Source of the DNA: a virus
Taxonomy: Duplodnaviria; Heunggongvirae; Uroviricota; Caudoviricetes
Length of the DNA: 10,106 nt
Strand: one strand, 5' to 3'
Virus record (IMG/VR): IMGVR_UViG_2737471839_000009
Position numbers and translations under genes: made by a program. Under the pieces are notes generated by a model that was given only the letters and a program-made list of their open reading frames with translations, did not search any database and was not told where the DNA came from. This document shows positions 195 to 1,046 of this stretch, one piece after another; position 1 is the first letter of the stretch, and each line of letters starts with the position of its first letter.

Positions 195-633
195 AGCGTA
201 CACCTCCTGGAATTCCCTCAGACACCATCATCAGCATGGCTTCATCCTCTGTACTGCTCCGCATGTCATCACTGACCGTAACGATTTCCTTCCCGTCAGC
301 CCCAAAGCGGACACCACCAGAAAGTCCTGCCGCTTTCCGCATCAGCATATCGTCCTCATCCGGCATCTCCGTCTGCTCATCATCACGTCGGGGTGCAAGC
401 AGACTGAAATCCGCCGGATGCATATCCGGATCGCAAAAAAACAGGCTGAGTACGGTGTACGTCAGCCCGGAAAAATGCATATCCAGCTGGGTATCGTGAA
501 AATAATGCGTGCGGTAAAAACGGTGCCAGTCGGCATATTCGGTGGATGTCATCCCGGCAAGCATGGTGCGCCAGTCAGGCCTCCCCATCTCACGCGCCAG
601 TCTGAGGGCAAAATTCAGCTCGCCGTCGAAGAC
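184..633 (-). CDS. T: T portion of the tail assembly chaperone G-T fusion; translated only after a -1 frameshift from G, no independent start expected
   Basis: The -1 frame relative to G is open from the slippery site (633..639) to the TAA at 186..184. Translation after the shift (VFDGELNFALRLAREMGRPDWRTMLAGMTSTEYADWHRFY…GGVRYGG) matches lambda gpT as recalled. The ORF track shows only the Met-initiated part, 184..588. Confidence 0.85.
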   Translation of the reverse strand, partial: VFDGELNFALRLAREMGRPDWRTMLAGMTSTEYADWHRFYRTHYFHDTQLDMHFSGLTYTVLSLFFCDPDMHPADFSLLAPRRDDEQTEMPDEDDMLMRKAAGLSGGVRFGADGKEIVTVSDDMRSSTEDEAMLMMVSEGIPGGVRYGG

Positions 634-1046
634 TTTCCCGCAGAAAAATCATCATCAGTAAGCGCATTATTTTTCGCCACTTCGGTGATATCCGTATCCA
701 CATGAACAGGCTCACTCATCCCGGACAGGCACAACACCACTTCTTCCGCCCGGGCAACGGCATCGGCAGGCCAGGTGGTGAGCACTTCCTGCTCTATCTT
801 CATCACGGCCTCATTCATTGACGGTGACTGCGTTTTCTGTGGATGGTTATGCCACAGGGACATCGCCACCAGAAACGCCCCGGTTCTGACAAGGTCTTCC
901 ACGCTCACCTGCAGGTTGCCGCTGACTTCAGCCTCTTCTGCCCGCCGTTTCAGGAGGGCAAGATGCTCAATACGCTGCAGCGCAGACAGCTCAGAAAGCG
1001 TGACAGACACACCGTTATATTCAAATTGTTCTGTTTTCAGAAACAT
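615..1046 (-). CDS. G: Tail assembly chaperone gpG
   Basis: 143-aa ORF beginning MFLKTEQFEYNGVSVTLSELSALQRIEHLALLKRRAEEAE, near-identical in places to lambda gpG as recalled; GGAG Shine-Dalgarno upstream; ends with the GGGAAAG slippery heptamer just before its stop. Confidence 0.92.
   Translation of the reverse strand: MFLKTEQFEYNGVSVTLSELSALQRIEHLALLKRRAEEAEVSGNLQVSVEDLVRTGAFLVAMSLWHNHPQKTQSPSMNEAVMKIEQEVLTTWPADAVARAEEVVLCLSGMSEPVHVDTDITEVAKNNALTDDDFSAGKSSTAS
633..639 (-). promoter_or_regulatory. Programmed -1 ribosomal frameshift slippery heptamer G GGA AAG (G to G-T recoding site)
   Basis: Minus-strand mRNA reads …GAT GAT GAT TTT TCT GCG GGA AAG TCT TCG ACG GCG AGC TGA. The heptamer GGGAAAG (plus strand CTTTCCC at 633..639) sits 5 codons before the G stop, and a -1 slip puts the ribosome in the open T frame. 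Same heptamer and position as in lambda G/T. Confidence 0.85.

Follow-up and report, generated by a model that had tools for sequence, protein, structure and literature searches.

A predicted lambda-type −1 ribosomal frameshift at the G/T tail assembly chaperone locus of an Escherichia coli lambdoid prophage

Gene context and anatomy of the G/T locus

The window analysed here, a stretch of 10,106 nucleotides from IMG/VR virus record IMGVR_UViG_2737471839_000009, contains two overlapping reading frames, G and T, in its tail module and raises the question of whether T is translated from a start codon of its own or is reached by ribosomes that begin in G and shift into the −1 frame. The evidence described below makes it very probable that this region encodes the lambda-type gpG/gpGT tail assembly chaperone pair of an E. 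coli lambdoid prophage, made by −1 ribosomal frameshifting. A prophage in E. coli 08-00022 shares 98.4% identity with the window over the whole of its length, and 4022 of the 5426 complete E. coli genomes contain similar segments. All genes of the window are on the minus strand, with the order Z-U-V-G-T-H, so that the G/T pair lies between V, encoding the tail tube protein, and H, encoding the tape measure. Gene V, the upstream neighbour (1062..1811, minus strand), encodes a major tail tube protein (PF16461, 1.7e-66) with a C-terminal bacterial Ig-like domain (Big_2, 5e-16) at residues 160–239. The 5′ part of H (1..194, minus strand) runs to the edge of the window from an ATG at 194..192 that is preceded by the Shine-Dalgarno sequence AGGAGG (208..203), and the full-length H homologue in locus L002 matches TMP_2 and Tape_meas_lam_C.

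Both reading frames were assigned to the lambda family by profile comparison. The zero-frame product of G matches PF06894, the lambda tail assembly chaperone protein G family, at 1.1e-50 and scores 168.7 bits with the equivalog model TIGR01674 (phage_lambda_G), for which the cut-off is 74.45. For the −1 frame the Pfam match is PF06223 (1.8e-13) and, when read from the slip site described below, it scores 204.6 bits against the equivalog TIGR01715 (phage_lam_T), covering profile positions 1–110. A search of solved structures returned no real homologue, the sole matches being weak and to designed WD40 proteins.

Gene G, encoding the tail assembly (tape-measure) chaperone, occupies 615..1046 on the minus strand and specifies 143 aa. 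Direct reading of the sequence places its ATG at 1046..1044, 7 nt downstream of the Shine-Dalgarno sequence GGGGAG (1054..1059, minus strand), and its TGA at 617..615, with the translated C-terminal end of gpG being ...DDDFSAGKSSTAS*. Close to this end lies the slippery heptamer GGGAAAG (633..639, minus strand; CTTTCCC on the plus strand), which the phase of G divides as G_GGA_AAG, the arrangement appropriate for a −1 shift. Five sense codons of the G frame (TCT TCG ACG GCG AGC, encoding SSTAS) and the TGA follow it, forming the G/T overlap 3′ of the slip site (615..632, minus strand). The T-frame coding segment after the shift extends over 184..639 on the minus strand, that is 151 codons counted from GGG AAA and then a TAA at 186..184, and its translation from the GGG at 639 begins GKVFDGELNFALR... 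and in a longer stretch reads GKVFDGELNFALRLAREMGRPDW.... Joining G codons 1–136 to these 151 T-frame codons predicts a GT fusion of 287 aa. On its 5′ side the −1 frame is blocked by a run of three TGA codons (649..657, minus strand), which leaves three open codons ahead of the heptamer. A premature −1 slip 5′ of the site would lead to immediate termination. The TGA triplet arises from ACT GAT GAT GAT in the G frame.

Most of this anatomy had been proposed in an initial annotation of the locus. Direct reading and translation confirmed the position of the heptamer five codons before the G stop and the open −1 frame from there to the T stop at 184; a stop codon in the −1 frame between 633 and 588, which had been put forward as a finding that would count against frameshifting, is absent. 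The 11-nt overlap of the T stop with the H start likewise proved correct (ATG 194..192 versus TAA 186..184), and the same overlap is annotated in the 98.4%-identical prophage. All of the positions given are accurate, but the span assigned to the feature, 615..1046, covers G only, and the full extent of the G/GT feature is 184..1046.

The occurrence of a GGGAAAG heptamer is in itself uninformative. Three matches are found in the window compared with 1.73 expected, a difference that is not significant, the other two being on the non-coding strand; heptamer frequency was therefore rejected as evidence. We replaced heptamer counts with the phase of the site and the length of the −1 ORF that it opens as the informative test. 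Ten heptamers of the X_XXY_YYZ type are in frame within the genes of the window, and only the site in G opens a long −1 ORF (151 codons), whereas the other nine open −1 ORFs of 2–18 codons. The heptamer alone is thus no more than chance would provide, while the arrangement as a whole is not a chance one. A second in-phase GGGAAAG is present within H (position 13991 of L002, outside the window) and is kept in many relatives; reading from it in the −1 frame ends after 15 codons, and it is probably incidental.

Comparison with lambda and conservation of the slip site

The likeness to the lambda G/gpGT arrangement noted initially extends to the family matches, the gene order and the slip site itself. 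The predicted 287-aa GT is 72% identical to lambda gpGT, the sequence of which was verified from NC_001416, and the alignment with lambda G/T that had been suggested as a check places the heptamer in the same column of the DNA alignment as that of lambda, within a locally conserved island. The slip-site DNA and its flanks, TTTCTGCGGGAAAGT-TTCGACGG, align with those of lambda and are nearly identical: the two DNAs differ strongly over the region encoding the C-terminal linker of G, and identity resumes at TTTCTGCGGGAAAGT and runs on into T. As in lambda, the heptamer is G_GGA_AAG in the same phase with five sense codons to the G stop, the Gly-Lys junction is followed by VFDGEL, both halves are matched at equivalog level and the gene order is V-G-T-H. 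The differences between the two loci are minor. They differ in the codon after the heptamer, which is GTC here and GTG in lambda, so that even the nominal GTG 'T start' codon of lambda is absent. They also differ in the −1 frame 5′ of the site (three open codons here, bounded by the three TGAs, versus 13 in lambda), in the acidic linker at the C terminus of G and the last third of T, both of which have diverged, in indels of 3 aa in G and 4 aa in T, and in the T/H overlap, which is 11 nt here and 8 nt in lambda. The upstream head genes are without lambda likeness: the head module includes one long ORF (3544..5760, minus strand), annotated in the near-identical prophage as a fusion of a ClpP-like prohead protease and the major capsid protein. 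The joining of such a head to a lambda-type Z-U-V-G-T-H tail module is typical of lambdoid mosaicism.

The programmed −1 frameshift at lambda G/G-T is reportedly the subject of studies by Levin, Hendrix and Casjens in 1993 and by Xu, Hendrix and Duda in 2013 and 2014. At the lambda G_GGA_AAG site, ~96% of translation continues in the zero frame to give gpG and ~4% shifts to give gpGT (PMC3296357), and a G:GT ratio of 30:1 has been given (PMC5009743). The heptamer is among the highly shift-prone ones in E. coli (PMC5009743), and the lambda shift depends on tRNA-Lys(mnm5s2UUU), the decoder of AAG and AAA, hypomodification of which raises shifting (PMC3296357; PMC7618472). The lambda GT fusion is made at a low percentage and is required for tail assembly (PMC3296357, PMC5009743), the G part binding the tape measure and the T part the tail tube protein (PMC5009743).

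A GT fusion could also be produced by transcriptional slippage, that is RNA polymerase stuttering instead of ribosomal slippage, and a GT-type protein is expected by either route. The homopolymer runs known to support polymerase slippage are of about 6–9 or more; some relatives of the locus do have a longer A run (AAAAAAG) at the site, but the GGGAAAG of the window has only three A's, which is far shorter. The two forms of slippage are contrasted in PMC5009743. At the identical site of lambda it is known to be the ribosome that slips, and tRNA-Lys modification affects the shift (PMC3296357). The probability that we attach to a transcriptional origin is close to negligible, and ribosomal slippage is the reading adopted below.

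Conservation of the site, as had been claimed, is borne out both in close and in distant relatives. Each of the 80 close IMG/VR relatives has GGGAAAG at the homologous position; three of them were confirmed by eye, two of these having indels elsewhere in G. More distant G/T diversity was obtained by tblastn of a phage collection together with individual records, and a second scan of viral contigs yielded 80 near-identical cdtI-type loci. Lambda and 11 more distant phages carry sites at the homologous position that without exception end in A_AAG and are in phase with G, with 0–5 sense codons left before the G stop. The heptamer is AAAAAAG in Stx1_1380 and CP-1639 and GGAAAAG in N15, phi80, LLS, cdtI, PSTCR8lys and Gifsy-1, and the T-frame protein is conserved from the slip site onward in nine family members. 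The family comparison re-illustrates a known pattern, in which the heptamer changes from phage to phage but the shift stays in the same place.

N15 (gp14/gp15), phi80 and LLS (G/GT), cdtI and Gifsy-1 have been placed in a conserved class of tail-chaperone frameshifts that was reportedly defined by Xu, Hendrix and Duda in 2004. These phages resemble the present locus in having homologous G and T frames, a site near the 3′ end of G, a −1 shift ending on A_AAG and a T without its own start. They differ in that their heptamer, read as G_GAA_AAG, is of the non-canonical X_XYY_YYZ type, compared with GGGAAAG here, in having 0–5 codons to the G stop and in their shorter T domains (~115 aa versus 149 aa here).

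Some of the close relatives have shortened or interrupted frames. The T frames of L005, L024, L034 and L065 are truncated to 94, 117, 58 and 98 codons from the site, respectively, and indels break the G frame in L003 and L004; GGGAAAG is kept in each case, and these six loci are decayed prophages or assembly errors. Such loci lend some colour to the reading that the window itself belongs to a decaying, non-functional prophage remnant in which the slip site is an inherited relic, and the prophage could be defective or silent. In the window, however, the head and tail genes are all undamaged from the small terminase through to H and follow the gene order of lambda, and no break is seen in G, in the heptamer or anywhere along the T frame, which makes decay extremely unlikely. 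A remnant would bear on current activity of the prophage and not on the identity of the element.

Translation start of the T frame

The principal competing explanation is that T is a gene in its own right, translated from an ATG at 586..588 (minus strand) into a 134-aa protein as predicted by PGAP, and that the heptamer in G is there by coincidence. An ORF that starts at this ATG (184..588) does exist and is taken as T by ORF finders and PGAP, the corresponding ORF of the 98.4%-identical RefSeq prophage carries the name 'phage tail assembly protein T', and this Met-started ORF exceeds the TIGR01715 cut-off on its own, with 185.7 bits. However, no Shine-Dalgarno sequence is found at a usable spacing before ATG 588 (context ...GACTGGCGCGTGAGATG), whereas G, H and V all have one, those of G and H being strong. 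Nor is the Met conserved: it is replaced by Phe in N15, phi80, LLS, cdtI and PSTCR8lys, within the motif LAREFGRPDW, and the first T-frame Met of these phages is elsewhere.

The T frame on the 5′ side of this ATG provides further evidence against an independent start. The 17 T-frame residues preceding ATG 588 (GKVFDGELNFALRLARE) are conserved in the family and form part of the TIGR01715 profile, to which the Met-started ORF aligns from position 12 only, whereas reading from the slip site extends the alignment to position 1. Because the T frame is closed three codons 5′ of the heptamer, only ribosomes that come from the G frame can translate this conserved segment. Among relatives, substitutions in the stretch shared by G and T mostly leave the T-frame protein unchanged (GTC, GTG and GTT; GGC and GGT), but they alter the G-frame product, converting Ser to Cys, Phe or Pro and Ala to Val. 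In lambda itself the T reading frame is expressed as gpGT via the frameshift, as reported by Levin et al. (1993; cited in PMC3296357 and PMC5009743). Taken together, these features make an independent T very unlikely, and ATG 588 is probably an internal Met rather than an initiator. The anatomy, the homology and the conservation of the site and of the T frame 5′ of the first Met are read directly from the sequences of the window and its relatives. The view of the initial annotation that T should not be treated as a Met-initiated gene is therefore upheld, as is its remark that the ORF entry 184..588 understates the product, since the conserved T frame and the TIGR01715 match both start just after the slip site and a 287-aa GT is predicted.

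Proposed mechanism, stimulatory elements and annotation

By orthology with lambda, from which we infer the shifting itself, its efficiency and the chaperone roles in this prophage, most ribosomes would read G from 1046 to the TGA at 615 and release the 143-aa gpG. A small fraction, ~4% in lambda, would slip back by 1 nt on G_GGA_AAG (639..633), with tRNA-Gly on GGA and tRNA-Lys on AAG re-pairing with GGG and AAA. These ribosomes would go on to read 'T' in the −1 frame as far as the TAA at 186..184, giving the predicted 287-aa gpGT with the junction ...DDDFSAGK|VFDGELNFALR.... On the lambda model, the G part of both gpG and gpGT would coat the tape-measure protein H and the T part of the rare gpGT fusion would recruit the tail-tube protein V, with the G:GT ratio set by the frequency of slipping and neither protein expected in the virion.

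High frameshift efficiencies are associated with stimulatory elements in E. coli dnaX, where a Shine-Dalgarno-like element 5′ of the site and a stem-loop 3′ of it drive a shift of ~50%. The dnaX (tau/gamma) site is like the present one in being a −1 tandem slip that ends in A_AAG, with decoding by a single tRNA-Lys (PMC5009743). Whereas dnaX has both stimulators, no Shine-Dalgarno-like element was seen near the slip site of the window when the upstream sequence was read by eye, and no convincing structure was detected downstream. The efficiency of the shift here is expected to be a few percent.

In −1 frameshift signals of the dnaX, IS or retroviral type, a stable and conserved stem-loop or pseudoknot is expected 5–9 nt 3′ of the heptamer, and the downstream region was examined for such a structure in several ways. 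Over 106 nt from the site, the sequence folds no better than dinucleotide shuffles (z = −1.14). RNAalifold applied to eight family members gave a consensus structure beginning 8 nt after the heptamer, with a few compensatory pairs, although the consensus was tested on the sequences from which it was derived and the region encodes a very conserved peptide. This structure does not fit the cdtI and PSTCR8lys sequences, and when the downstream fold of the window was compared with synonymous recodings that keep the T-frame protein, no excess stability was found (z = −0.47). The stimulatory RNA structure that the consensus had suggested thus did not hold up in the window under this protein-keeping control. 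The lack of a significant downstream structure is what has been reported for lambda, and it is not counted against the mechanism.

The equivalent comparison in relatives, using the 78 nt 3′ of the heptamer, gave a mixed picture. Lambda and phi80 have z values of about −2.4 relative to synonymous recodings, and lambda, phi80, CP-1639 and Stx1_1380 (L001, L108, L113 and L112, respectively) together span −1.8 to −2.4, whereas the excess stability is absent in Gifsy-1 (z −0.1) and PSTCR8lys (z +0.1). The extra stability in the former group may reflect a lineage-specific structure or an artefact of codon usage. One could envisage that phages of the lambda, phi80, Stx1 and CP-1639 types have a weakly conserved RNA structure, starting ~8 nt 3′ of the site, that could tune the shift, with little or none in the window, but we consider this unlikely. 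If true, a stimulator in part of the lambda G/T family would contradict the usual statement that G-T frameshifting in tailed phages proceeds without one.

Two details of the checks first suggested for the fusion protein need correction. Mass spectrometry of virions would be uninformative, since gpG and gpGT are absent from the virion in lambda (PMC5009743). In addition, trypsin cuts at the junction Lys (spanning sequence ...DDDFSAGKVFDGE...), so that the diagnostic tryptic peptide is VFDGELNFALR and not a junction-spanning one; this peptide is encoded 5′ of ATG 588 and in the −1 frame only.

The locus is an orthologue of the example on which the class was founded. In site, mechanism and function it corresponds to the textbook lambda G/GT frameshift, which is already known, and the value of the assignment lies in annotation: a joined G-T CDS with ribosomal slippage, encoding 287 aa, in place of the separate Met-started T of PGAP. 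Annotation of the frameshift is inconsistent across the phage records examined. It is marked at the site in the GenBank record of LLS, the only one with a joined CDS, and flagged in notes in those of N15, phi80 (FN582354) and Gifsy-1. T is listed as a separate gene in the lambda RefSeq record (NC_001416 10115..10549), in PGAP-annotated prophages (L002 12518..12922) and in cdtI, CP-1639, Ayreon, Flotzy and PSTCR8lys, and such entries are sometimes truncated and sometimes named 'hypothetical'.

A scan of genome contigs mostly gave lambda-like G/T sequences on short contigs of assemblies labelled with unrelated taxa (L085–L106), including Neobacillus, Kitasatospora, Chromatium, Leeuwenhoekiella, Bradyrhizobium and Enterococcus. 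Coverage is ~1x where the contig name states it, and the 85-nt slip regions are those of lambda where checked. These contigs most likely represent contamination of public assemblies with lambda DNA.
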